Shown: piece by piece, positions 1 to 12,348 of the stretch | How positions within the stretch are numbered: the stretch's first letter is position 1 | How the letters are laid out: the number at the start of each line of letters is the position of its first letter | Virus record (IMG/VR): IMGVR_UViG_2671180921_000029 | Span: 1 to 12,348 of that record | DNA: 12,348 bases | Reading direction: 5' to 3' (one strand) | From: a virus | Taxonomy: Duplodnaviria > Heunggongvirae > Uroviricota > Caudoviricetes | Notes under the pieces: model-generated | Seen by the model: the letters and a program-made list of their open reading frames with translations, nothing else | The model's database searches: none | What the model was told of the DNA's origin: nothing | Position numbers and translations under genes: made by a program

Positions 1-1020
1 CTACTTACTGACCACAAGCGGCAAATCCAGTGTTGGCGTGATTTTGGTTTTACGATCGTAAATCAACACCTGATTTTCTGTTTTGTGTCCACTGAAAATT
101 TGTTTGTCGCGACTGCTGCCTTCGTAATCTGAAATCCCTTTGGCTTTTATGTCATGGAAGTTGCACCCAAACGGAACGCCGGCTTTTTGCTCGGCTGCAC
201 GTTTAGCCTGATTCCACCAGTTGTTCAGCGTCTTGGCTATTACCTTCCCGCCTTTGGTTGTGTTGATCACATATTCGCATGTGCCGGAAGATACATTTCG
301 GGCTAACTGGATCGCCGTACGTAATCGTGGAGACCATTCCTTGATTTGTTTGGTGCCGGTCTTGTTTTGCTCAATGTAAATCCCTTTGTCCATAATATCC
401 TGCCATTTCAGCTCGAGCACATCACCGAGCCTTGCCGCACAGAGATAGGATATCTCCATTGCAATACGTAACTGTGGAATTGCTTCCGCATATATCGCAG
501 CATACTGTTCATCGGTGATGTAAACAGTACGGGCTTTAAGCGTGAATTTTCTGACTCCTTTGCATGGATTATTTTGCACATACCCACGCTCATATCCCCA
601 TCCGTATACGCGACTCAGACTTGCCAGTTCATGGTTTGCCTGGGTCTTGCTCTCAAGACCCCGCTTATCCATGAAAATTCTTACCTGCTCAATTTTTACA
701 TTATCAGCAAGCATTTTCCCGAATACCGCCAGTAATGCCCTTTGATGTTGCCGATAATCTTTTTGGGTTCGGGGGGCCAGTTCTGTAAATGCAGGGGAGT
801 CCATAAACATGTGCCATAATTTAGCTACGGTCATTATGTCGTGGAGTTTTGCCTTTTCCAGTTCATAATTTTGCCAGACTTTAGCCACGCTGGTTTCCCG
901 CACTCTTCCGAGCTTTATCGTTCTTGTGCTTCCTTTGGGCTTCCATACGTAACTGTAACCATTCGATCTAACGCGCGGTGGCAGTACATTATCTTTTTTG
1001 TCTTTTCTTGGTCTTCCCAT
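1..1020 (-). CDS. int: Phage tyrosine integrase (339 aa); window begins at its stop codon, so attL lies outside the window to the left
   Basis: Long ORF at the prophage edge. C-terminal region has the tyrosine-recombinase pattern (ARLGDV..., HDIKAKG..., GHKTENQVLIYDRK with terminal catalytic Tyr candidate). Overlapped at its 5' end by a small basic xis-like ORF, as in lambda. Confidence 0.85.
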   Translation of the reverse strand: MGRPRKDKKDNVLPPRVRSNGYSYVWKPKGSTRTIKLGRVRETSVAKVWQNYELEKAKLHDIMTVAKLWHMFMDSPAFTELAPRTQKDYRQHQRALLAVFGKMLADNVKIEQVRIFMDKRGLESKTQANHELASLSRVYGWGYERGYVQNNPCKGVRKFTLKARTVYITDEQYAAIYAEAIPQLRIAMEISYLCAARLGDVLELKWQDIMDKGIYIEQNKTGTKQIKEWSPRLRTAIQLARNVSSGTCEYVINTTKGGKVIAKTLNNWWNQAKRAAEQKAGVPFGCNFHDIKAKGISDYEGSSRDKQIFSGHKTENQVLIYDRKTKITPTLDLPLVVSK

Positions 1021-1240
1021 TATTCAGTGCCTCAAAATCGGGGTCAGCAGAAACCAGTTCAGATACTTTTGACATTGCTGTTAGTCCACGTGGAATATCA
1101 CAGCGTAGAACTATCGGCTCGTTTTTAGGCCCGATTAAAAATGGGATGCCGTGCAGTCTTAACTGGTGTTGCTGTCTTGTGTATCGCTTGTATTTCGTGA
1201 TCTCTTGAATCTCTGCTGGCGATAGAGTTAATTCATACAT
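989..1240 (-). CDS. xis: Excisionase-like small DNA-binding protein (83 aa), overlapping the int start by 32 nt
   Basis: Position directly upstream of and overlapping int. Starts MYELTL (lambda Xis starts MYLTL) and ends in a basic tail (GKTKKRQKR). No clear SD upstream, so the exact start is uncertain. Confidence 0.6.
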   Translation of the reverse strand: MYELTLSPAEIQEITKYKRYTRQQHQLRLHGIPFLIGPKNEPIVLRCDIPRGLTAMSKVSELVSADPDFEALNNGKTKKRQKR

Positions 1241-1306
1241 GTGGTCACGTGCCTTACAGCATGACCGCCGCCAATATAATTCGGAGGCGGCGATCAGGGT
1301 TGAACA

Positions 1307-3787
1307 TTAAAAATCAGCCTGACTCGGGATCATTTTTTGTATCGTGGCTGTAACGTATTTTGCCTGGTGACGGGCGTCATCCAGTGCATTGTGGCGCACG
1401 CCTTCGAATGGAATAAAGGTTCTGGCATCAAAGTCGATTGTTTTTCCCAGCTCAACGATTGTGCGTACATCGCGATCGTTGTGGTAGCGCCACGGGCAGG
1501 GGATGTCCAGACGTTCGTATGAGGTGCGCAAAATTGCGTTATCGAAAGTTGCACCATTACCCCATACCTGAACGAATTTTTCATCTGAGTATTCGTTGAT
1601 GAACTCCCGAAACCGCGAAAGGGCATCCTTCAGTTTTACCTGGTCTGTTAAAATGGCAGCTCTGGCTTCACTGGACTGCTTCAGCCACCATTCGATGGTT
1701 CCACCGTCAGGAACAGCCCCTGTATTCATTGCGTCAGTCAGACTGATAACGATATAAAATACTGGCCCGATTTCCCCTGTTTGTGGGTCGAAGAAAACCG
1801 CACCAATAACCACGATGGGCGCATTGGTGTTGGTTCCCATTGTTTCAAGGTCGATCATCAGGTGGTACCACACTCTGCTGGTGGATGTGATAACGTGATG
1901 ACCGTTCACCGCAATTAAGGGAGCTGCCGTCTCGCCAGTTTCATTATCGCTGGCGTGGTCCTGAGCGCTGCCAGCATTCTCCTTGTGTGGATGTTCAGCG
2001 CCTTCCATTTCCTCCGGATCATTTTCCTGAACTTCAACCTGATTCTCTTCATCGAATGTTTCCTGGTATGTTGCGTCGCCCATCACGGCGCCACAATCAG
2101 GGCAGTTGCCGCCACCGCTCTGACCGCAGGCGGTGCAGACTTTTTCCGCTTCCTGTTGCGCTACTGGCTCAGGTTGTTTCGTTTCTGGCTCGTTTTGTAA
2201 CGCATTTTGGCTGTTTTGTTCCGCTTTCTGGTCGTTCTGTTCCGTTTCTTGCTGGTTCTGATTCACTGAATCGCGGGTTTCAATCCCCTTCACCCATTTC
2301 GGATCATTCGGGTCGCTAATCCCTGCAACAAATTCACCACGTGATGCGGCGAGCAACTGATTGGCGTCAGGCTGGCTGATATTGGCTGCCTGCATAATTT
2401 TCTTTACTTCGTCAGCGGTAACTTTTACCGGTTCTGGTTGTTCAGAATTTTGTGCGGTATTTGCATTTTGCGGTAAGCCTGTGTATGTGCCATTTTTTCG
2501 GGCAAAATATTCTTCTTTTGTGATTTCAGTAGCCCCTGCAGTCAGCGCCTTATTCAGACCAGAAAGTTTGTTTGCGCGACCGTATTTTTCGCCATCCTTG
2601 TCGGTGAAGAGGAAGTAGAACGGCCCCTCACGCTCTACAGATGGTTCGATTTCCACTTTGCATTCGGTTTTTTCGTTGTCCGGAATTGCCGTTTCCACTG
2701 CATCAGTTTCTGGTACTGGCGATGAGAGAGTATCAGTTGCGCTCTGATTTGTTCCTTCATCTTCAAACACGCCCTTTGTAGTCAGGTATTCAGTAATGTA
2801 TTTGTTCAGTGCCACAGGGTCTTTGTGAATGTCGATCGGACGTTCACGGACAAGGCCAAAAATAGTCTGGCGGTCGTAGCGAAGGGCATCAGGCTGTTTG
2901 CGCATTGATGCCGAGATACGCTTCCAGTCTTCACGGTCGTTGTCGATAACTTCATTTTTTGCCCAGCGATGGATGCTGCCGTCAATGTTTCCGGCATCCA
3001 CATCACCAGGCCAGAGAGCGTAGGCCAGTTCGTCATCCAGTGTTTTCCATGTCTGCTTGTATTCGCGATGAATGGCAGCAATGACCGGGCTGATTTTTCC
3101 TGTTGAATTTTCAGTGTGCTGTTGATTGGCTCTGGCGCGGGCGAGATCAACAACAGACGTGTATTTTCCGGTTTCCTTGCGTTCACCTTCGCGACGTTTT
3201 TTCCAGATGCGCATCTCTGCCTGAATTTCGGGCCATTTGGCACCTGGCTTACATTTATGCTTAACCCACCCGATGGCATGCAGCTTAAGCTCCGGATACA
3301 TGGCGTTAACTTCTGGCATTTTCATCAACGCTTCAACGATATGTCCGTCGAATGTTGCCATGTCTTCCTGCAACAGTTCCTGCGCACTAATCACCATATC
3401 AACGGTGATGTTTTCACATGTGTCGAACTTAACCATGACAGCGTTCTGTACTTCAGGGGCCAGCTTGTCAAAAGTGACGTTCATCGGATCTGATTCAGTC
3501 TCAACCGGGACAAAGGAAGCAGAGTCCTCATCCCAGCGGTTTTCCTGCATATATTCAGCATCCCAGGAATCGAGGGCAGGGCGGGGTATACCGGGTTTAT
3601 CCTCGCAAACAAGAAATTTATAAGCGCAGTCCTGAGCAGCCGGATATTGCTCCAGGAATTGCCAGGTAAATTTGGCACGGGCGCGGCGTTCGTCACCGGC
3701 TTCAATGGCAGTGGCTACAGCAATTGCACCTTCTTCCTTTATTGCCTGTTCGTCCGGAATGGCGGCGCAAATAAAGACTTTACTCAT
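1307..3787 (-). CDS. Large phage exonuclease (826 aa) with C-terminal DEDDh/DnaQ-like 3'-5' exonuclease domain; often annotated as exodeoxyribonuclease VIII-like in related prophages
   Basis: C-terminal ~187 aa (nt ~1310-1870) carries DEDDh motifs: MIDLETMG, WGNGATFDNAIL, HNALDDARHQ. Central acidic/Gln-rich low-complexity linker and a CxxC-(9)-CxxC zinc ribbon (CTACGQSGGGNCPDCG, nt ~2090-2130). Weak SD (GAGGT, 9-nt spacer) before the ATG at 3787. Confidence 0.8.
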   Translation of the reverse strand: MSKVFICAAIPDEQAIKEEGAIAVATAIEAGDERRARAKFTWQFLEQYPAAQDCAYKFLVCEDKPGIPRPALDSWDAEYMQENRWDEDSASFVPVETESDPMNVTFDKLAPEVQNAVMVKFDTCENITVDMVISAQELLQEDMATFDGHIVEALMKMPEVNAMYPELKLHAIGWVKHKCKPGAKWPEIQAEMRIWKKRREGERKETGKYTSVVDLARARANQQHTENSTGKISPVIAAIHREYKQTWKTLDDELAYALWPGDVDAGNIDGSIHRWAKNEVIDNDREDWKRISASMRKQPDALRYDRQTIFGLVRERPIDIHKDPVALNKYITEYLTTKGVFEDEGTNQSATDTLSSPVPETDAVETAIPDNEKTECKVEIEPSVEREGPFYFLFTDKDGEKYGRANKLSGLNKALTAGATEITKEEYFARKNGTYTGLPQNANTAQNSEQPEPVKVTADEVKKIMQAANISQPDANQLLAASRGEFVAGISDPNDPKWVKGIETRDSVNQNQQETEQNDQKAEQNSQNALQNEPETKQPEPVAQQEAEKVCTACGQSGGGNCPDCGAVMGDATYQETFDEENQVEVQENDPEEMEGAEHPHKENAGSAQDHASDNETGETAAPLIAVNGHHVITSTSRVWYHLMIDLETMGTNTNAPIVVIGAVFFDPQTGEIGPVFYIVISLTDAMNTGAVPDGGTIEWWLKQSSEARAAILTDQVKLKDALSRFREFINEYSDEKFVQVWGNGATFDNAILRTSYERLDIPCPWRYHNDRDVRTIVELGKTIDFDARTFIPFEGVRHNALDDARHQAKYVTATIQKMIPSQADF

Positions 3788-3910
3788 TTTGTTTTAACCT
3801 CATGACATATTTAAGGATGAACAAATCCCTGCCATTGCTGGCATATAAGAATCAAATCTGATGTATTCATTAAGCTGAATGTCGTATTGTGGCAGTTATT
3901 TTATTACTGC

Positions 3911-4132
3911 TCACCATGACTCTGCTTTTACAGGTAAACCATCACGACCAAGGAAGACTTTAATCATGGTTTCCTTAATACAGTGTTGTGTGGAAAAATC
4001 ACGAATATAGAGCCGTTGTTTTTTAATGTTGTTTACCGAAGCAATATATGTTCTTCCTTTATGAATAACATAATCACCGGGAGTCACGCACTGACGAGGA
4101 ATCTCATCAGTTCCGAAGTGATGAGCAATCAT
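3911..4132 (-). CDS. Hypothetical small protein (73 aa); start moved to the internal ATG at 4132
   Basis: ORF-track ORF 3911..4144. The ATG at 4130-4132 is preceded by a strong SD (aaATGGAGGTaattATG), whereas the upstream ATG at 4144 has none. No recognisable motif. Confidence 0.55.
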
Positions 4133-4697
4133 AATTACCTCCATTTTTACAAATGAACTTTGTTGATGCGGTGCCTGGTGCCTCCAGGTGACGTTAACCA
4201 GTTAACAATTAATGCCGGATACAGAGAATCCACCCATAACACTGTTTTTGGTTTTAACTGTTCCGCGTGCGCTTAGCCGCATTCACCGCATCACAAAATT
4301 CACTTTAAAAAGGGCGGCAGAGCAGTCACGGAGTAAAACTGATACCGCCAAACGCCACCAGAAAATTGATAACAGAGGGCGTTGTAGCGGGGTTGTCACT
4401 TAAGCGTATGGTCAACCTGACAACCCGGTGTCCTCAACGGGGAAGGAATAACCCCGCCATACTTACCGCCGCGCCATTTCGCGGAGTGCCACAACCGGAA
4501 GCGCACGGTCGACGAAAATTTAACGACAGGCTATCTATGAACCAGCAACCTCGCCGTGCGCTTTCGCGTTATGCTCTGACTTTTCAGAGAAATATCCTTT
4601 CAGTAAACTGTCAGTGCCGGATGCTCACCCGTGTCCGGCGCACGCACTCCACTTCACCCGTGGAGAACTCCTTAATTACCAACCCTCAGGAGGGTGA

Positions 4698-4931
4698 ATG
4701 TTAAAATCAACTCTTATTGCTAAATGCCTTTATCAAAATCGCATGGTAAGCAGCATTTCAATAGGCGAGTCTGCAGTTAAAAGTATTTTCGAAGAGTACT
4801 TTCCCGGGCATGATTTTAATAAATGGAATACCAAATTACCGCCAGCAGTTTCAACGCGTATTCTGAAAGCAACTGAAAGAGCAAGTACAATTCGCGTTAA
4901 CTATTTCATTAAAGATTTGTGGGATCTTTGA
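4698..4931 (+). CDS. Hypothetical protein (77 aa) on the strand opposite the leftward operon; 3' end overlaps the convergent gene at 4909..5316 by 23 nt
   Basis: Near-consensus SD (cAGGAGGgtgaATG). Sits in an AT-rich segment that differs by eye from the GC-rich flank to its left. No recognisable family. Confidence 0.5.
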   Translation: MLKSTLIAKCLYQNRMVSSISIGESAVKSIFEEYFPGHDFNKWNTKLPPAVSTRILKATERASTIRVNYFIKDLWDL

Positions 4932-5316
4932 TATCCACAGAGCCTAAAGTATGTGCATATGGATGTGCTATTGTGCGCCCTCGCAGATTTGCATCATTTT
5001 CTAAATTCACTGAACGAAACAGGGCATCAACAAGGCTCTGTACAATGCAAAGGCAATCGAAGACTGTCGCCGTTTCTGTTTTGATTGATGAAAGAACATG
5101 GCCATTCACGCAAACAGAAATTACCCGTTTATTAACATCGCTTTCCTGCTTTTGATTATCAGAACCATATAGCCCAGAAAAAGCATTGCGCACATTACGA
5201 ACCATATTATCGATGGTTTCTTTTTTGGTGTATGCCGGGTCAATTTTCACCAGACTATCACCGAGAGTCGTTGCAGCAATTGTCTGGATTTCTTTTGGTA
5301 AATCTTTAAATTCCAT
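4909..5316 (-). CDS. Hypothetical protein (135 aa)
   Basis: ORF with SD-like ACGAGG 7 nt before the ATG. AT-rich codon composition like its neighbours. No recognisable motif. Confidence 0.6.
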   Translation of the reverse strand: MEFKDLPKEIQTIAATTLGDSLVKIDPAYTKKETIDNMVRNVRNAFSGLYGSDNQKQESDVNKRVISVCVNGHVLSSIKTETATVFDCLCIVQSLVDALFRSVNLENDANLRGRTIAHPYAHTLGSVDIKDPTNL

Positions 5317-5338
5317 TATTAGCCTCGTTGGTTAGCTA

Positions 5339-5557
5339 TTAACGTGGGTATGTAATCATTCTGGCAATGCTTAATGCCGCTGCTTTTTCCAGATTGGTGA
5401 TATCCTGCTCCAGAGCGGACAGATTTTCAGCCTGCTTAGCCCTGGCTTCATTGGCCCATTTCAGATCCTGCGCTGCATTAATTTTCTGGCGCATCCACTC
5501 ATAAAGTTCATCATCGGTATAGTCTGGCGCGATGATGACGGGTTCTCGTTTCTGCAT
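5339..5557 (-). CDS. Hypothetical small protein (72 aa), probably helical
   Basis: Strong SD (CAAGGAGccgacATG). Stop lies 22 nt upstream of the next gene's start, suggesting co-transcription with 4909..5316. Confidence 0.6.
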   Translation of the reverse strand: MQKREPVIIAPDYTDDELYEWMRQKINAAQDLKWANEARAKQAENLSALEQDITNLEKAAALSIARMITYPR

Positions 5558-5649
5558 GTCGGCTCCTTGTGGTTAGCGTTGCCTGCTTTTAACCACGTCA
5601 GGCGAGGTGGTATCCTCTGAGGGATCTGTTACTCGAGAGGAAATTGGTT

Positions 5650-5850
5650 ATGAATACAATCAAGTTTTCTTGCCCAGAATGTGGCGGCGAAGTCTTTGAC
5701 ACATCCTTTAAACCGCATGGCTCTGACAGTTTCGCGGGAGCCATCTGCAAAAATTGTGGTCACCTTGTAACTGAAGATGAGTCCTCGCAGTTCGATGACG
5801 AAATCGTTGACAATATCTTCGGTGCACTCACCAGAGACTTTCTGAAGTAA
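5650..5850 (+). CDS. Small zinc-ribbon protein (66 aa; CPEC-x22-CKNC)
   Basis: Two CxxC pairs (KFSCPECGG ... AICKNCGH) typical of a zinc ribbon. GAGAGG SD 9 nt before the ATG at 5650 (the ORF track starts 6 nt earlier at a TTG). A perfect hairpin plus T-tract 46 nt downstream is oriented for this strand. Conflicts with the overlapping minus-strand ORF 5629..5985. Confidence 0.5.
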   Translation: MNTIKFSCPECGGEVFDTSFKPHGSDSFAGAICKNCGHLVTEDESSQFDDEIVDNIFGALTRDFLK

Positions 5851-5895
5851 AGGCGCATACCGCTTAGTTACCGCTCTGATAACTCTTACCTGTCC

Positions 5896-5941
5896 GGCAA
5901 TGGCGCTGATGTCAATATAAAGCGCCATTGCCGCTTCTTTG
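5896..5941 (+). terminator. Candidate rho-independent terminator: perfect 12-bp inverted repeat with 13-nt loop, followed by a T-rich tract
   Basis: GGCAATGGCGCT (5896-5907) pairs with AGCGCCATTGCC (5921-5932), followed by gCTTCTTTg. The T-tract is present only in the plus-strand orientation. Confidence 0.5.
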
Positions 5942-6159
5942 CCGATCCCGGGATGCCTTCCATTCTGATGTTTGACTTCGCCCACTGAGAAACCCTCTGT
6001 TTCCCCTTAACGCCGGGGTAGCGGAACAAAAACCTGCTGCATAGTTATTAAAGTTGAACCCTGCCGTCATGTTCTTACGCCTCGGGCTGGCTACTTAACC
6101 CCTGACCACTGCCGGGTAACTCGAAGTATTGCCCTGCGTTCTGTGGGGCGGGGTGGGTT

Positions 6160-6196
6160 GGTATTTTTAGTTTAATAAACATTAAACTTAAGTCAA
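6160..6196 (-). promoter_or_regulatory. PL-like leftward early promoter (-35 TTGACT, 16-nt spacer, -10 TAAACT read on the minus strand), an inverted copy of the PR-like element
   Basis: Plus 6191-6196 agtcaa and 6169-6174 agttta are the reverse complements of the TTGACT and TAAACT hexamers at 7184-7189 and 7208-7213. The surrounding ~30 bp is an inverted near-copy of 7175-7205. Confidence 0.4.
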
Positions 6197-6280
6197 GCAA
6201 AAACTAAACCGTGGGGCGTAACAAACACAACGCTTTTGGTAAAGTCGTTGCGGTTGTTATGTTTCTATTGGTAGTTAAAG

Positions 6281-6559
6281 TTAGGGAAACTGGCGTCTTG
6301 CGTGGATCACGTTTACTACTTCAACGCTTGATGTTGTTACGCGGTATAGAATTATATAGTTAGGGTGGGCCACAATCTCACGCAAGCCAGGTACTCTGTC
6401 GCTTGGTGGGTATAAATACGGATGTTCGGATAACGGCAGCACACAACCCCTTAATCGCTGCCATAAGCGTTCAGCCGCATCTATGTCGAAACGAGCAATA
6501 TAACTGGTTATATCATCTAGGTCGGTATCTGCGTTTTCAAGCCATAACACGGGTAACAT
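6281..6559 (-). CDS. parE2: ParE/RelE-family type II toxin (92 aa), ParE2-like
   Basis: Start moved to the internal ATG (MLPVLWLENADTDLDDITSYI...), giving the canonical 92-aa size. C-terminus LREIVAHPNYIILYRVTTSSVEVVNVIHARRQFP is typical of ParE/RelE. Start lies 1 nt after the upstream antitoxin stop. The sequence matches my recollection of E. coli O157 ParE2. Confidence 0.85.
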   Translation of the reverse strand: MLPVLWLENADTDLDDITSYIARFDIDAAERLWQRLRGCVLPLSEHPYLYPPSDRVPGLREIVAHPNYIILYRVTTSSVEVVNVIHARRQFP

Positions 6560-6560
6560 T

Positions 6561-6752
6561 TTACTGCTTGCTCCGTTCCTTGCGCATTCTAGCAAAGCGT
6601 TCTGCCATTCTGCGCTCAACTTCGTCATGGGGAATTGCTGGGCGCGGATCTGCAAGGCTCGTTGCTACTTTCGCACGCAGCCATTCGTTGTAACTGTTTT
6701 CTTGTTCAATGGTTTCAAATTCAGAAACCATTGGTGAAAGGGCTCTATTCAT
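6561..6752 (-). CDS. paaA2: PaaA2-type antitoxin (63 aa)
   Basis: Internal start MNRALSPMVSEFETIEQENSYNEWLRAKV... preceded by a strong SD (GGAGGaaacATG). Size and sequence match my recollection of PaaA2. Lies immediately upstream of the ParE toxin on the same strand. Confidence 0.85.
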   Translation of the reverse strand: MNRALSPMVSEFETIEQENSYNEWLRAKVATSLADPRPAIPHDEVERRMAERFARMRKERSKQ

Positions 6753-6772
6753 GTTTCCTCCGGTTTTATAAC

Positions 6773-7144
6773 TTAGGCGCGGCGGCATTTTTGCGCCGCA
6801 ATCCATCTCGCTATGAGATCTTCCATTGATTCTTTTTTCTGCTTTAACTCGCTGATTATCTGGCGTTGCTCATCCTCAGGGAAGGCTGAAAAAATCTGCA
6901 ATAATTCCAGTTGATTAGACGTTAACCCTGCATGTGGTGGAGAAATCTCCGGTTGTTCTGCGTATTCCGCATCCAGATACCCTTCCGGCATCCCGTATGT
7001 TTGCTCTATTCTTCTGGCAGCCTTTTCTCCAAACGAGGCCCTCCCACTCATTAGTTGAGATAGGTAGCTCTTCTCTTTGGGTGGCAGAGTTTTATCTTTA
7101 AACCACTCCTTGAGACGTAAACGGCGAATTTCTTTTTTCTGCAT
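6773..7144 (-). CDS. paaR2: PaaR2-type HTH transcriptional regulator (123 aa from the ATG at 7144), in the cI-repressor position
   Basis: XRE-type HTH-like segment (KSYLSQLMSGRASFGEKAARRIEQ). Divergent from a Cro-like gene and first gene of the paaA2-parE2 operon. Start ambiguous: ATG at 7144 (weak SD) or GTG at 7207, which would place the start inside the promoter/operator repeats. Confidence 0.75.
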   Translation of the reverse strand: MQKKEIRRLRLKEWFKDKTLPPKEKSYLSQLMSGRASFGEKAARRIEQTYGMPEGYLDAEYAEQPEISPPHAGLTSNQLELLQIFSAFPEDEQRQIISELKQKKESMEDLIARWIAAQKCRRA

Positions 7145-7183
7145 GTGGTAATTATCTTTAGTAATCACTAAACAAGCAAATAC

Positions 7184-7241
7184 TTGACTTAATGGTTTAT
7201 TAAACACTAAACTCGCAAGAAAACACTAAACCGAGGAAGGT
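7184..7241 (+). promoter_or_regulatory. PR-like rightward promoter (-35 TTGACT 7184-7189, 18-nt spacer, -10 TAAACT 7208-7213) with CACTAAAC operator-like repeats
   Basis: Hexamers at sigma70-like spacing upstream of the Cro-like gene. CACTAAAC occurs at 7166-7173, 7205-7212 and 7224-7231, overlapping the -10 and leader. SD GAGGAAGG precedes the ATG at 7242. Confidence 0.5.
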
Positions 7242-7544
7242 ATGACATTAAAAGAGTTTATTAAATCATTGAGGGTTGGTGATGCTAAGAAATTCGCGGC
7301 CAGACTTGGTGTATCGCCATCTTACTTATCGCAAATGGCGTCCAGACGAGCAGCTATATCTCCAACCCGCGCCCTTATGATCGAATCTGCGACGGAAGGC
7401 CAAGTAAGTAGGGCGGAGCTACGACCCCATGATTGGGAGCTTATTTGGCCTGAGTATGCTAGCGGCATTCGTTTGGGGCAAACGCATGTAGTTCATGCTG
7501 AAGGTGATTGTAGTGCATGCTTATCTGATGGAGTTGATTCATGA
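7242..7544 (+). CDS. Cro-like HTH regulator, YdaS-type (100 aa)
   Basis: HTH segment (FAARLGVSPSYLSQMASRRAAISPTRALMIESAT). Divergent from the repressor-like gene and first gene of the rightward operon. Confidence 0.8.
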   Translation: MTLKEFIKSLRVGDAKKFAARLGVSPSYLSQMASRRAAISPTRALMIESATEGQVSRAELRPHDWELIWPEYASGIRLGQTHVVHAEGDCSACLSDGVDS

Positions 7545-7966
7545 AAATCAAGCATGAACACATCCGCATGGCGATGAATGCCTGGGCGCATCCGGACGGC
7601 GAAAAAGTTCCGGCAGCTGAAATAACCCAGGCTTATTTTGAGCTGGGTATGACGTTCCCGGAGCTATATGACGACAGGCATCCGGAAGCGCTGGCTCGTA
7701 ATACCCAGAAAATTTTCCGTTGGCTGGATAAAGACACCCCTGATGCGGTTAAAAAAATTCAGGCATTGTTACCAGCGATCGAAAAAGCAATGCCTCCTCT
7801 GCTGGTGGCCCGAATGCGCAGCCACAGTTCAGCCTGGTTTCGGGAGCTGGTGGAGACGCGGGAACGACTGGTGAGAGACGCTGATGATTTTGTCGCAGTG
7901 GCGATCGCTGGTTTCAACCAGATGAATCGTGGTGGCCCGGCGGGAAACATTGTGGTTGTGCATTGA
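7541..7966 (+). CDS. YdaT-type protein (141 aa) in the CII position
   Basis: Start overlaps the upstream stop (ATGA), with GGAG SD 7 nt upstream. N-terminus MKIKHEHI... resembles the YdaT family as I recall it. Confidence 0.7.
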   Translation: MKIKHEHIRMAMNAWAHPDGEKVPAAEITQAYFELGMTFPELYDDRHPEALARNTQKIFRWLDKDTPDAVKKIQALLPAIEKAMPPLLVARMRSHSSAWFRELVETRERLVRDADDFVAVAIAGFNQMNRGGPAGNIVVVH

Positions 7967-8037
7967 CTGACAATATTTATACCGGATCGCTTCCGGCAAT
8001 TCGTGAGTAAAAAGATTCGGTATCAGAAGAGGTGAGT

Positions 8038-9108
8038 ATGGCTAACGCCTGGCTCAGATTATGGCATGACATGCCAAATGATCCTAAGTGGCGAACAATT
8101 TCCAGGGTGTCAGGACAGCCAATCGCAACAGTGATGGCTGTGTATATCCACCTCCTGGTGAGCGCGTCACGAAATGTCACGCGAGGTCACATTGATGTCA
8201 CGACAGAAGATTTGGCAAGTGCGCTCGACGTGACAGAAGAGGTAATTGATTCAATTTTGCAGACGATGCAGGGGCGGGTACTTGATGGTGATTTAATCAC
8301 TGGATGGGAAAAACGCCAGGTGCTTAAAGAGGACAACGGCAATATTTCGCAAACCGCAAAATCTCCTGCAGAGCGCAAGAGGGCGCAGCGAGAGAGGGAA
8401 AGAAAGCGGGAACAAAATGGCGATTGTCACGGCGCGTCACGAAATGTCACGCACATGTCACGGCAAGTCACGACAGATAAAGATACAGATAAAGATACAG
8501 ATAAAGAAGATCAAAACACTATGGTCCATGGCGTAAAAAACGCCACGAACCAGGCAGGGGATGTTCAGACCGTCAATCCTGGTCAGCCAGCAGGCACGAC
8601 ACCGAAAGCCGATTCAGCGTATGCGCTGAAAGCCGATTCGGGCGCTGTGCAGCAGGTGATGACCGCAAGGCCGGAGCAATCACTCCAACTGCAGCAGCCT
8701 GAAGCCGATTCCGCCATTCAGCGGGAAGCCGATCGGGTAGCCCCGGAAAACACCGGGCAGCCTGTGGGACGAGTGGATTATCCAGATGTGTTCGAACAGG
8801 TCTGGCGGGAATACCCGTTGCGTGCCGGGGCAAACCCGAAGAAATCCGCTTTCAGTGCCTGGAAGGCCAGATTACGCGAGGGGGTGCCACCAGAAGCCAT
8901 GCTGGATGGTGTGAGGCGTTACGCAAGATACCTGGTGGCTACCGGGAAAACGGGAACGGAATTTGTTCAGCGAGCGACGACGTTTTTTGGACCGGACCGG
9001 AATTTTGAAAACCCCTGGTTGCTCCCGGTAAGCGGTACGAACAACCAGCGTTGCGTGAATCACATTTCTGAACCAGATACCGAAATTCCACCGGGCTTCA
9101 GGGGGTAA
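8038..9108 (+). CDS. Putative replication initiator / replisome-organiser protein (356 aa) with the origin embedded in its coding sequence
   Basis: Position after the cro/cII-like genes. SD GAGGTGA before the ATG at 8038 (the ORF track starts at a GTG at 8032). The gene contains iteron-like repeat arrays (see repeat features), as in lambda O / ori. Low-complexity linker between N- and C-terminal domains. Confidence 0.6.
   Translation: MANAWLRLWHDMPNDPKWRTISRVSGQPIATVMAVYIHLLVSASRNVTRGHIDVTTEDLASALDVTEEVIDSILQTMQGRVLDGDLITGWEKRQVLKEDNGNISQTAKSPAERKRAQRERERKREQNGDCHGASRNVTHMSRQVTTDKDTDKDTDKEDQNTMVHGVKNATNQAGDVQTVNPGQPAGTTPKADSAYALKADSGAVQQVMTARPEQSLQLQQPEADSAIQREADRVAPENTGQPVGRVDYPDVFEQVWREYPLRAGANPKKSAFSAWKARLREGVPPEAMLDGVRRYARYLVATGKTGTEFVQRATTFFGPDRNFENPWLLPVSGTNNQRCVNHISEPDTEIPPGFRG
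8164..8201 (+). repeat. Iteron array 1: four GTCAC(G) copies at 10-11 bp spacing
   Basis: GTCAC at 8166, 8176, 8186 and 8197. Includes the 19-bp string gcgtcacgaaatgtcacgc, which recurs exactly at 8434-8452. Confidence 0.7.
8426..8472 (+). repeat. Iteron array 2: five GTCACG copies at 10-11 bp spacing
   Basis: GTCAC at 8426, 8436, 8446, 8457 and 8467, with helical-turn periodicity. Confidence 0.7.
8474..8509 (+). repeat. Tandem 12-bp repeat (CAGATAAAGATA x3, last copy degenerate), A-rich, abutting iteron array 2
   Basis: Read directly from the sequence. Encodes DKDTDKDTDKE in the rep protein linker. Confidence 0.75.
8606..8735 (+). repeat. Four dispersed direct repeats of AAGCCGATYC at 24/72/24 bp spacing
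   Basis: Copies at 8606-8615, 8630-8639, 8702-8711 and 8726-8735 (last copy AAGCCGATCG). They encode a reiterated K/E-A-D-S/R peptide motif. Confidence 0.6.
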
Positions 9109-9148
9109 GTGTTTATTTCAGGTCACGAGGTAATTTTCAGGAGGACTT

Positions 9149-9571
9149 GTGGCAAAAGTTTTTACACAAGAAGAGCGAGAAAAAATTAAAGGGCAGGTTG
9201 TTGAACTCGTACGCCAGAGTGGGCGTGAGACGTTACGGCAACTGGAAGTCAAGACAGGTGCGACAAGATATCTGATGAGCGTTCTCGCAAGAGAGCTGGT
9301 TGCCAGCGGTGATGTATACAACTCTGATTACGGGTTATTCCCGTCTGAACAGGTGCGTAAGGACTGGCAAAATGCCCGTAAAAAGCTCTCAAGGGCAAAG
9401 CTGAAGAAACCATCTGCGGTTGATCCGGACCTTATCTGGTCATTACCAGACGGAGAAATACGCCGCTACGACAGGCGTCAGAACATAATCTGTAGCGAGT
9501 GCCGGAAGAGCGAAGTTATGCAGCGCGTGCTGGCTTTTTATCGGGGAAACTTTCAGGAGGTGCTGTTGTGA
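9149..9571 (+). CDS. Hypothetical protein (140 aa), GTG start
   Basis: SD GGAGGA 4 nt before the GTG at 9149. Lies downstream of the rep gene. No recognisable motif. Confidence 0.5.
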   Translation: MAKVFTQEEREKIKGQVVELVRQSGRETLRQLEVKTGATRYLMSVLARELVASGDVYNSDYGLFPSEQVRKDWQNARKKLSRAKLKKPSAVDPDLIWSLPDGEIRRYDRRQNIICSECRKSEVMQRVLAFYRGNFQEVLL

Positions 9572-9719
9572 GCCAAATTAACAATCGGAACTTGGTGAAG
9601 AGAAAGCATAATCCAAATCTGAATAATTAAATTGAGCACTGTTAAAAAATTAATCCTTAACCGGAGGGATTTCTGCACCCTCAGAACAGCAGGAGGCCAC
9701 CAGAAAGGGCGGTAGTGAA

Positions 9720-9902
9720 ATGCGAAAGTTCAAAATAATTATTGAAACTGGAATAGCTGGTGGGGGTTTTGAGGATGTATTCGAAGTGGATGATGACGCA
9801 ACACCTGATGAAATTCATGACGAAGCAAAAGAAATTTTCTTTAACTACTGCAATTACTCATATCACGAAATAAAAGACGAGGAGGAAGAACAAAATGGCT
9901 GA
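9720..9902 (+). CDS. Hypothetical small acidic protein (60 aa)
   Basis: ORF with a weak SD. First gene of a translationally coupled string of small genes. Confidence 0.45.
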   Translation: MRKFKIIIETGIAGGGFEDVFEVDDDATPDEIHDEAKEIFFNYCNYSYHEIKDEEEEQNG

Positions 9903-10077
9903 TTTTGGTTCAACTAAATACAACGTCAGTTTTAAAGAATGGCATGAACTGTTAATGGACTATGCAGAGTTACGCGGTGGAAGTGCTGCTGATGCTGATG
10001 CTGAAGCATGGCGTGATGATTATGAAGCAGGGAAAACTCCGGTCGAAGCATATTGTGATGAGTGGGGCGATGAATGA
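9895..10077 (+). CDS. Hypothetical small acidic protein (60 aa)
   Basis: Strong SD (GAGGAGGAAG) 6 nt before the ATG. Start overlaps the previous gene's stop by 8 nt. Confidence 0.55.
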   Translation: MADFGSTKYNVSFKEWHELLMDYAELRGGSAADADAEAWRDDYEAGKTPVEAYCDEWGDE

Positions 10078-10631
10078 GCGGGATTAACTATCAGATGCTG
10101 CGGGATAAGGCAGAGAACGCAACTAAAGGAGGCTACATCGTAGGGCATACATCTGTTAACCAGCACGGTAATTTAACAGGAGTTTTTGTTTGTCAAAAAT
10201 GGAAAGGAGAACCAGGTGGCGTGATTGCAGAATGTCATGCTAACTGCCTGGTTGAAACAGATGCTCAGGCTTATGCAAACGCAGAATTCATAGCAGAGGC
10301 TAGCCCGGCTACCGTGCTGGCACTACTGGATGAACGGGAAGCAGCCAACAAGCGCATAGCAGAACTGGAAGCACGGGAAATAAAACCAGCCAAAGGCGAA
10401 GTTCTTGTCGTTGTATCTGGTTTTACTGGTTGCGGAAAAAGCGCCATCGCCGGGGAAATAGAAATCGCGATGAAGGCTATTGGTGTACCGGTTAAGTGGA
10501 CTAATGGCGATGCAGAAAAGCGCATGACTGGCGCTGACTGGCTGACAGCGATTGAGATGTACAAACCAACTGTGCGCATCGTGGAAGTTAATGTGCCACG
10601 CGCCGCTGGCATTCGCATCAAAGGAGAGTGA
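10074..10631 (+). CDS. Phage protein (185 aa), possibly Ead/Ea22-like
   Basis: ATGA start/stop overlap with the upstream gene. The motif ANAEFIAEASPATVLALLDEREAANKRIAELEA resembles the conserved N-terminal motif of lambdoid Ead/Ea22-like proteins as I recall it. Confidence 0.55.
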   Translation: MSGINYQMLRDKAENATKGGYIVGHTSVNQHGNLTGVFVCQKWKGEPGGVIAECHANCLVETDAQAYANAEFIAEASPATVLALLDEREAANKRIAELEAREIKPAKGEVLVVVSGFTGCGKSAIAGEIEIAMKAIGVPVKWTNGDAEKRMTGADWLTAIEMYKPTVRIVEVNVPRAAGIRIKGE

Positions 10632-11980: not shown

Positions 11981-12192
11981 TTTTATATTGGCGAGGTGAC
12001 GGGAGTTAAGTAGAATTGCTGCGGGTGCTTGAGGCTGTCTGCCTCAGGCATGAACACCAAAAGGCAGATAGAGAAAAGCCCCAGTTAACATTACGCGTCC
12101 TGCAAGACGCTTAACATTAATCTGAGGCCATATCTATGCTCTACACACGTAGGTTAGCCTCTTACGTGCCGAAAGGCAAGGAGAAGCAGGCT

Positions 12193-12348
12193 ATGAAGCA
12201 GCAAAAGGCGATGCTAATCGCCCTGATCGTCATCTGTTTAACCGTCATAGTGACGGCACTGGTAACGAGGAAAGACCTCTGCGAGGTACGAATCCGAACC
12301 GGCCAGACGGAGGTCGCTGTCTTCACAGCTTACGAACCTGAGGAGTAA
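12193..12348 (+). CDS. hok: Hok/Gef-family type I toxin (51 aa), HokD/RelF-like; stop codon is the last triplet of the window
   Basis: MKQQKAMLIALIVICLTVIVTALVTRKDLCEVRIRTGQTEVAVFTAYEPEE has the Hok architecture (N-terminal TM helix, then RKxLCE...). SD AAGGAG 9 nt upstream. The ORF track shows an in-frame 19-codon upstream extension from 12136. Confidence 0.85.
   Translation: MKQQKAMLIALIVICLTVIVTALVTRKDLCEVRIRTGQTEVAVFTAYEPEE

Follow-up and report, generated by a model that had tools for sequence, protein, structure and literature searches.

A near-identical copy of the CP-933P paaR2-paaA2-parE2 immunity region on a backbone resembling phage Evi

The paaR2-paaA2-parE2 operon was reportedly first described by Hallez et al. 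in 2010. In the cryptic prophage CP-933P of E. coli O157:H7 EDL933 the paaR2 gene occupies the slot of cI, and a detailed study of this locus identified PaaR2 as the CI analogue, YdaS as the Cro analogue and YdaT as the CII analogue (Jurenas et al., 2021, mBio, PMC8630535). The evidence came from EMSA, DNase I footprints, gfp fusions and a two-colour bistability reporter, and the experiments were done in a K-12 host, with the reporters on plasmids and the regulators under arabinose control, and not in the native prophage (PMC8630535). The intergenic region of 97 bp carries four equally spaced 18-bp inverted repeats and three operators, and of this region PaaR2 protects ~78 bp and YdaS ~65 bp. 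Transcription from PRM933P starts at the ATG of paaR2, giving a leaderless mRNA, and the N-terminus was found to be MQKKE by protein sequencing. PR933P and PRM933P are repressed by both PaaR2 and YdaS, and PRM is activated by low PaaR2; PL933P, whose -35 and -10 hexamers are identical to those of PR933P, is repressed ~100-fold by PaaR2 or YdaS, and the PRE933P promoter is activated by YdaT. The two-colour reporter was bistable, with two heritable states dependent on paaR2 and ydaS, and a paaR2 stop mutant lost one of the two expression states (all PMC8630535). PaaR2 is described in published work as an HTH repressor which forms octamers and is without a RecA-cleavable peptidase domain; the authors noted no peptidase motif in PaaR2 and no DNA-binding motif in PaaA2 (PMC8630535).

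The toxin-antitoxin (TA) genes of CP-933P were transcribed appreciably in both the RAE2-on and the ydaST-on state, though operon expression differs between the two, and ParE2 activity was detected in neither (PMC8630535). The SOS-positive fractions were alike, 0.876% vs 0.953%. On the EDL933 copy ParE2 toxicity was shown to be neutralised by PaaA2. The whole region matches ccdAB in stabilising a mini-F plasmid, and the authors proposed that addiction guards the immunity region against recombinational replacement (PMC8630535). The structure of YdaT has since been published together with its operator, TTGATT-N6-AATCAA (Prolic-Kalinsek et al., 2023, PMC9986795).

The DNA analysed here, below called the window, is a stretch of 12,348 nucleotides from a Caudoviricetes virus record. 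A 1.8-kb part of it, positions 5900-7700, is 97.6% identical at the DNA level to CP-933P of EDL933 and has the same gene order. The genes of the operon and its divergent neighbours are the following:

6281-6559, minus strand: parE2, ParE-family toxin of 92 aa (Pfam PF05016 ParE_toxin, E=4.4e-16; PDB 5cw7_B)
6561-6752, minus strand: paaA2, antitoxin of 63 aa without a DNA-binding domain (Pfam PF21217 PaaA2, E=1e-19; PDB 3zbe_A)
6773-7144, minus strand: paaR2, first gene of the operon, CI-analogue repressor of 123 aa starting with MQKKE (PDB 7nkv; phrog_5736)
7242-7544, plus strand: ydaS, Cro analogue with HTH, 100 aa (Pfam PF15943 YdaS, E=3.7e-12, and HTH_3; phrog_35 transcriptional repressor)
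7541-7966, plus strand: ydaT, CII analogue of 141 aa (Pfam PF06254; phrog_163 CII-like activator, E=7e-46; PDB 3c4r, 8bt1)

All five open reading frames are intact. The coordinates bear out an initial annotation of the DNA, according to which regulator, antitoxin and toxin are tightly spaced in one direction (6281-7144, minus strand), with the regulator divergent from a Cro-like gene. The stop codon of paaA2 (6561-6563) and the ATG of parE2 (6557-6559) are separated by the single base 6560, as that annotation had also stated. By the open reading frame list and the raw sequence, 20 nt with a GGAGG among them lie between the stop codon of paaR2 and the ATG of paaA2. On the other side paaR2 is separated from the divergent ydaS, which starts at 7242, by 97 bp (7145-7241), and ydaS and ydaT overlap by 4 nt.

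The initial annotation had guessed that this is the known arrangement of the O157:H7 paaR2-paaA2-parE2 locus and had proposed a comparison of the three proteins; the guess was right and the comparison gave near identity, 98-99% for ParE2, PaaA2 and PaaR2, with YdaS alike and YdaT as the exception. ParE2 has 91/92 residues identical to PDB 5cw7_B (E=1.9e-59) and a single substitution, N9S, relative to EDL933; its fold also gives weak matches to 3kxe and 6x0a. PaaA2 is identical to PDB 3zbe at 61/62 residues and differs from the EDL933 protein by R55K. Its sole match in the Pfam scan, PF21217, covers the 33-residue PaaA2 toxin-binding motif. The N-terminal domain of PaaR2 is identical to all 65 native residues (65/65) of PDB 7nkv, which was deposited as 'Phage repressor protein CI'. 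Along its full length PaaR2 agrees with the EDL933 protein at 121/123 positions, both changes (E66G and I67G) lying in the linker, and it matches the transcriptional regulator family phrog_5736 with E=4e-39. YdaS has 98/100 residues in common with its EDL933 counterpart. YdaT is 84% identical to EDL933 YdaT (119/141); it matches PDB 3c4r (E=2.7e-88) and 8bt1 (E=1.7e-79) and is near-identical to the crystallised homologue 3c4r.

In RefSeq the paaR2 product is labelled 'hypothetical protein', paaA2 'RelB family antitoxin' and YdaT 'toxin YdaT family protein'. The value of the comparison for annotation is that these labels can be replaced by CI-like repressor, PaaA2 antitoxin and CII-like activator, as in the experimental literature.

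The control elements of the switch were placed by a consensus scan, by a repeat search and by motif:

6166-6209, unstranded: OL operator repeats over PL, of the same repeat families as at OR; OL1-OL3 have been reported there (PMC8630535)
6196-6169, minus strand: PL (PL933P equivalent), TTGACT-16 nt-TAAACT, reading leftward, away from the operon; consensus scan, inside the published PL933P fragment
7145-7241 (97 bp), unstranded: OR region with the IR1-IR4 operators/inverted repeats and the divergent PRM and PR; coincides with the published EMSA fragment
7151-7179, minus strand: putative PRM (PRM933P equivalent), TTGCTT at 7179-7174, 17 nt, GATAAT at 7156-7151; hexamers read by eye
7156-7173, 7195-7212 and 7214-7231, unstranded: OR repeats; repeat search
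7184-7213, plus strand: PR (PR933P equivalent), TTGACT-18 nt-TAAACT, driving ydaS-ydaT; consensus scan, inside the published PR reporter fragment
7534-7551, unstranded: YdaT operator OM, TTGATT-N6-AATCAA, at the ydaS/ydaT junction in the PRE region; exact match TTGATTCATGAAAATCAA, motif and footprint from PMC9986795

Published elements were located by mapping the primers in Table S3 of PMC8630535 onto the window. All published PR/PRM, PL, PRE, EMSA and footprint primers map with 0-1 mismatch, which gives these fragments:

6163-6280: PL933P reporter fragment, primer mismatches 0 and 1, containing the leftward hexamers
7144-7217: PR/PRM reporter fragment, primer mismatches 0
7145-7241: EMSA fragment (primers FL1/FL2), primer mismatches 0
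7450-7569: PRE933P reporter fragment, primer mismatches 0 and 1

A base-by-base comparison of the 1.8 kb with EDL933 gave 43 differences, none of them in 6160-6210 and one, at 7219, in 7145-7241. The changed base falls between the -10 of PR and the ribosome-binding site of ydaS, and the PRM stretch has the same sequence as in EDL933. Between the -10 of the putative PRM and the A of the paaR2 ATG (7144) lie six bases; such a position fits the start found by 5' RACE at the paaR2 start codon, which leaves the mRNA leaderless (PMC8630535).

The initial annotation had placed the same TTGACT/TAAACT pair at 7184-7213 and, inverted, at 6169-6196, and these coordinates are exact. TTGACT N16-18 TAAACT has 2 matches in the 12.3-kb window where 0.01 is expected, a count not attained in any of 200 shuffles. 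The further statement that the pair lies within inverted near-copies of ~30 bp is roughly right: there is an inverted exact match of 10 bp (6188-6197 / 7183-7192), the surroundings of PL and PR form a pair of 24-nt arms with 79% complementarity, and when PL and PR are aligned with a spacer indel of 2 bp, 23/32 columns agree over the stretch that begins just ahead of the -35 and closes with the -10. The operators are related too. The repeat families (A/G)TTTA-TAA-CA-TAAAC are common to 6170-6209 and 7156-7231, GTTTAATAAACATTAAAC at 6170-6187 and AGCAAAAACTAAAC at 6196-6209 belonging to the same families as the OR sites. ACTAAAC occurs in four copies in the window (6203, 7167, 7206 and 7225), all in the two operator regions; chance expectation is 1.16 copies, and four were reached in 6/200 shuffles.

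A search with the half-site consensus GTTTAGTAA allowing two mismatches or fewer was too permissive, with matches across the AT-rich parts, and was dropped as evidence; the longer repeat families and the exact ACTAAAC count tell more. The stable hairpin at 6219-6259 (z=-2.79) was considered as an intrinsic terminator of the operon; it has no U-tract after it and was not called by the terminator scan.

Every defining feature of a CP-933P-type RAE2 immunity region which can be tested in sequence is present: a ParE2-type toxin of 92 aa with the 63-aa PaaA2 directly upstream, paaR2 first in the operon, the divergent ydaS-ydaT across 97 bp, a PL with the -35 and -10 of PR together with OL repeats, and the YdaT operator. 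CP-933P (Sp12 in Sakai) agrees with it in the five genes, in their order and spacing and in the length of the intergenic region, and the PR, PRM and PL hexamers, the OL and OR repeats and the YdaT operator are all identical. Judged from its sequence, the region is thus confirmed as a near-identical copy of the published locus; the arrangement is real, was correctly read, and is already known.

The differences from CP-933P all lie outside the immunity region, and the CP-933P backbone matches the window in blocks only. The integrase open reading frame is full length in the window and frameshifted in EDL933; the replication gene of the window is phrog_3729 / LvrA-C-related, where CP-933P has an HTH protein and ATPase pair; and the window has extra genes between kil and ydfC. 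Positions 1-9546 are collinear with Escherichia phage Evi at 96.9% identity, and Evi was isolated from a faecal sample as a coliphage. Positions 1-9542 are collinear, at 98.7%, with a prophage adjoining yccA in strain EC12. The EC12 prophage is the closest genome copy, and it sits beside yccA while CP-933P sits beside ynfA. EC12 also gives the best coverage of the window, 81%; full coverage was found in none of the complete E. coli genomes in the collection. At least 80% of the 1.8-kb region is present in 591 of 5426 complete E. coli genomes. Since the backbones of the window and of CP-933P differ, the same immunity cassette circulates among lambdoid backbones. The backbone, which resembles the isolated phage Evi and not the cryptic CP-933P, is the sole new context of the region.

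We consider it highly probable that a lambdoid prophage has its immunity switch in this region, that the switch is of the CP-933P/Sp12 type, and that the type II TA pair paaA2-parE2 is carried on the repressor transcript. The proposal in the initial annotation that the TA regulator is also the immunity repressor is thereby supported: repression has been shown at PR, PRM and PL on the EDL933 locus (PMC8630535), and these elements are conserved here. From this conservation we infer that the present copy would behave like the EDL933 locus, in the following way. A leaderless transcript from PRM would give PaaR2 together with PaaA2 and ParE2. PaaR2 would bind the repeated operators at OR (97 bp) and OL and repress PR, and with it ydaS-ydaT and the replication genes, as well as PL and the leftward early genes. 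Its own promoter, PRM, would be stimulated when PaaR2 is low and repressed when PaaR2 is high. YdaS would compete for the operators of PaaR2 with a preference for PRM, and two heritable expression states would be the outcome. YdaT, bound to TTGATT-N6-AATCAA, would activate the leftward PRE and so provide a second route to expression of paaR2-paaA2-parE2. PaaA2 would neutralise ParE2 by direct binding and have no DNA-binding role, and paaA2-parE2 would act as an addiction module, with a penalty on losing or replacing the immunity region.

The initial annotation had also suggested that switching between the states would alter the output of toxin and antitoxin. This holds in so far as expression of the operon differs between the states. 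Switching does not, however, activate ParE2, because the SOS-positive fractions are 0.876% and 0.953% and the TA genes are transcribed in both states (PMC8630535).

It might be argued that PaaR2 supplies no more than the DNA-binding part of a 'split antitoxin', that it autoregulates the TA operon without a role in immunity, and that a separate CI-like repressor elsewhere in the prophage controls PR and PL. The idea was raised by the authors of PMC8630535 themselves. Some regulator must make up for the lack of a DNA-binding domain in PaaA2, and PaaR2, for which the Pfam scan found no family at E<=0.01 and no S24 peptidase domain, is not a full-length homologue of CI/LexA. The separate repressor was looked for, since the initial annotation had named a cI-like repressor elsewhere in the element as an observation that would speak against its reading. 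Pfam and PHROGs scans of all sizeable open reading frames from the integrase to hokD, where the window ends, found no second repressor and no antirepressor, and no other HTH or repressor-like frame; among the products scanned are the integrase, a DUF4224 excisionase-like protein, an 826-aa exonuclease, kil, ydfC, the replication initiator, DUF977, DUF7167 and an Ead/Ea22-like protein. The gene paaR2 itself is in the cI position, 97 bp from the divergent Cro-like gene, and PL, which is ~1 kb off and outside the TA operon, carries the same hexamers and operator repeats. In EDL933 this promoter is repressed ~100-fold by PaaR2, and the paaR2 stop mutant loses one state (PMC8630535). The published data on repression of PL and PR have thus already largely refuted a role confined to the TA operon, which we regard as very improbable.

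Alternatively the locus could be a decayed remnant, with the sequences kept and the switch itself dead, by the changes in the PaaR2 linker or through the divergent YdaT, and with TA addiction alone retaining it. CP-933P, the studied carrier of the switch, is cryptic; YdaT differs from the studied protein at 22/141 residues; and stabilisation of the region by addiction was proposed by the authors of PMC8630535. Against this, the five open reading frames are intact and the promoters and operators essentially unchanged, the YdaT operator is exact and YdaT is nearly the same as crystallised 3c4r, and the backbone is collinear with an isolated coliphage (1-9546, 96.9%, Evi) and has a full-length integrase frame. 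A dead switch is in our opinion the least probable of these explanations, slightly behind the one with a separate repressor.

Taken as the immunity switch, the region invites comparison with the cI-rexA-rexB region of lambda. In both the repressor gene is leaderless from PRM, faces away from a cro-like gene and is followed on its transcript by accessory genes; the repressor and the Cro analogue compete for multi-site operators with related operators at a distant PL/OL, and a CII-like activator drives a PRE-like promoter. PaaR2, YdaS and YdaT, however, are without detectable full-length homology to CI, Cro and CII. PaaR2 lacks the S24 autocleavage domain of CI, and CP-933P has been reported to be unresponsive to mitomycin C (PMC8630535). 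The OR region has four 18-bp inverted repeats at equal spacing (PMC8630535) instead of the three operators of lambda, and the cargo is a TA pair where lambda has the rexAB exclusion genes. PaaR2, with its 123 aa and no Pfam match at E<=0.01, works like CI but stands outside the CI/LexA (S24 peptidase) family.

The racR-ydaS-ydaT region of Rac and the dicA-dicC region of Qin in K-12 have the same layout, i.e., a repressor in the cI slot, a divergent Cro analogue of the ydaS/dicC type, and then ydaT; the leftward neighbours kil, dicB and ydfC are in common as well. The difference is that their repressor gene has no TA pair attached. YdaS and YdaT of K-12 are just 26% and 31% identical to the CP-933P proteins (PMC8630535).

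With the parDE modules (RK2 ParDE, Caulobacter ParDE1, Vibrio ParDE2) the region shares a toxin of the ParE fold and an antitoxin whose gene directly precedes that of the toxin and which neutralises the toxin by binding, and these modules likewise stabilise plasmids. It departs from them in that PaaA2 lacks a DNA-binding domain, so that the operon is not autoregulated by the PaaA2-ParE2 complex and its transcription is left to the phage switch proteins (PMC8630535). As PaaA2 matches the toxin-binding motif only, the pair does not belong to the canonical autoregulated type II TA systems.

There is little new in the arrangement, which is common and has been published as a case of a TA module built into a phage genetic switch. 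The backbone gives it a context and no new mechanism. All published work on the PaaR2 switch has used the cryptic CP-933P, and some lambdoid backbones with the PaaR2 cassette may be active. The question which the backbone raises is how an active phage of the Evi type would be induced without a cleavable repressor. It is conceivable, though we think it rather unlikely, that the PaaR2/YdaS/YdaT switch, lacking a RecA-cleavable repressor, governs a genuine decision between lysis and lysogeny in an active temperate phage. If this were true, the co-transcribed ParE2 could act in induction or superinfection, beyond its part in stabilising the immunity region, for example by abortive infection or by SOS feedback upon degradation of PaaA2.

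Over a long distance the backbone of this prophage resembles that of the Escherichia phage Evi (LR597642.1), a coliphage isolate whose source was infant faeces. It is 96.9% identical to and collinear with the window from 1 to 9546 (842-10388 of the Evi locus, L003), a stretch which comprises the entire left arm, the immunity region and the replication gene. A prophage adjoining yccA in E. coli EC12 (L002) matches window 1-9542 at 98.7%. The backbone carrying this copy of the immunity cassette is thus a different one from that of the cryptic prophage CP-933P of E. coli O157:H7 EDL933 (L001), and apparently less decayed. The integrase ORF in the window is full length, in contrast to the cryptic CP-933P, and the replication initiator (phrog_3729) is of another type than the one found there.

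The genes to the left of ydaT are 98-99% identical to their CP-933P counterparts. Of the 141 residues of YdaT itself (7541-7966, plus strand), 22 differ from the CP-933P protein, and most of these lie in the C-terminal half; YdaT is far nearer to the protein of PDB entry 3c4r. The DNA differences cluster beyond about 7580. Taken together these sequence comparisons suggest a recombination joint inside or directly after ydaT.

Between the toxin gene parE2 and the leftward promoter PL the following element was found:

6219-6259, minus strand: imperfect hairpin with 19-bp arms, flanked by the parE2 stop (6281) and the PL -35 (6196)

The RNA fold has an energy of -19.5 kcal/mol (z=-2.79), and the sole difference from EDL933 within it is position 6239, in the loop. 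As no U-tract follows, the hairpin is not a canonical intrinsic terminator. The operon transcript may have its 3' end here or be stabilised by the hairpin.

Immediately downstream of PL two antiparallel ORFs overlap almost completely:

5629-5985, minus strand: ORF of 99-118 aa, phrog_21318 (E=2e-66), annotated in phage Evi
5644-5850, plus strand: zinc-ribbon ORF of 68 aa with CxxC...CxxC, 'ECs_2282 family', annotated by RefSeq

Of the two, only the ORF on the minus strand has the direction of PL transcription. The ORFs downstream of PL have no assignable function according to the published study of the switch (PMC8630535).

Further to the left in the window are:

3911-4144, minus strand: homologue of kil, an FtsZ inhibitor
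1307-3787, minus strand: exonuclease-domain protein of 826 aa with a C-terminal Rv2179c-like 3'-5' exonuclease (residues 642-814, E=2e-67)

Beside kil, the stretch 4152-4684 has its match in the dicB region of both CP-933P and EC12; the dicB gene there is incomplete. kil and dicB are host-killing genes of the leftward early arm, and PL presumably controls them. The 826-aa protein has a long acidic, Q/E-rich, low-complexity N-terminal and central part, which contains a CxxC...CxxC motif and gave no match in a Pfam search; RefSeq labels the protein simply 'exonuclease'.

The present RefSeq names in the equivalent of window 6561-7966 in L001 and L002 are misleading. There paaR2 is a 'hypothetical protein', paaA2 'relB / RelB family antitoxin' and YdaT 'toxin YdaT family protein', whereas published experiments show that the first is a CI-like repressor, the second the antitoxin PaaA2 and the third a CII-like activator that is not toxic.

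The right end of the window contains one more toxin gene:

12136-12348, plus strand: mok/hokD-type type I toxin gene (…MKQQKAMLIALIVICLTVIVTALVTRKDLCEVRIRTGQTEVAVFTAYEPEE), cut off at the window end

Identity to the hokD region of CP-933P is 94.9%, and the gene constitutes a second toxin system within the prophage.
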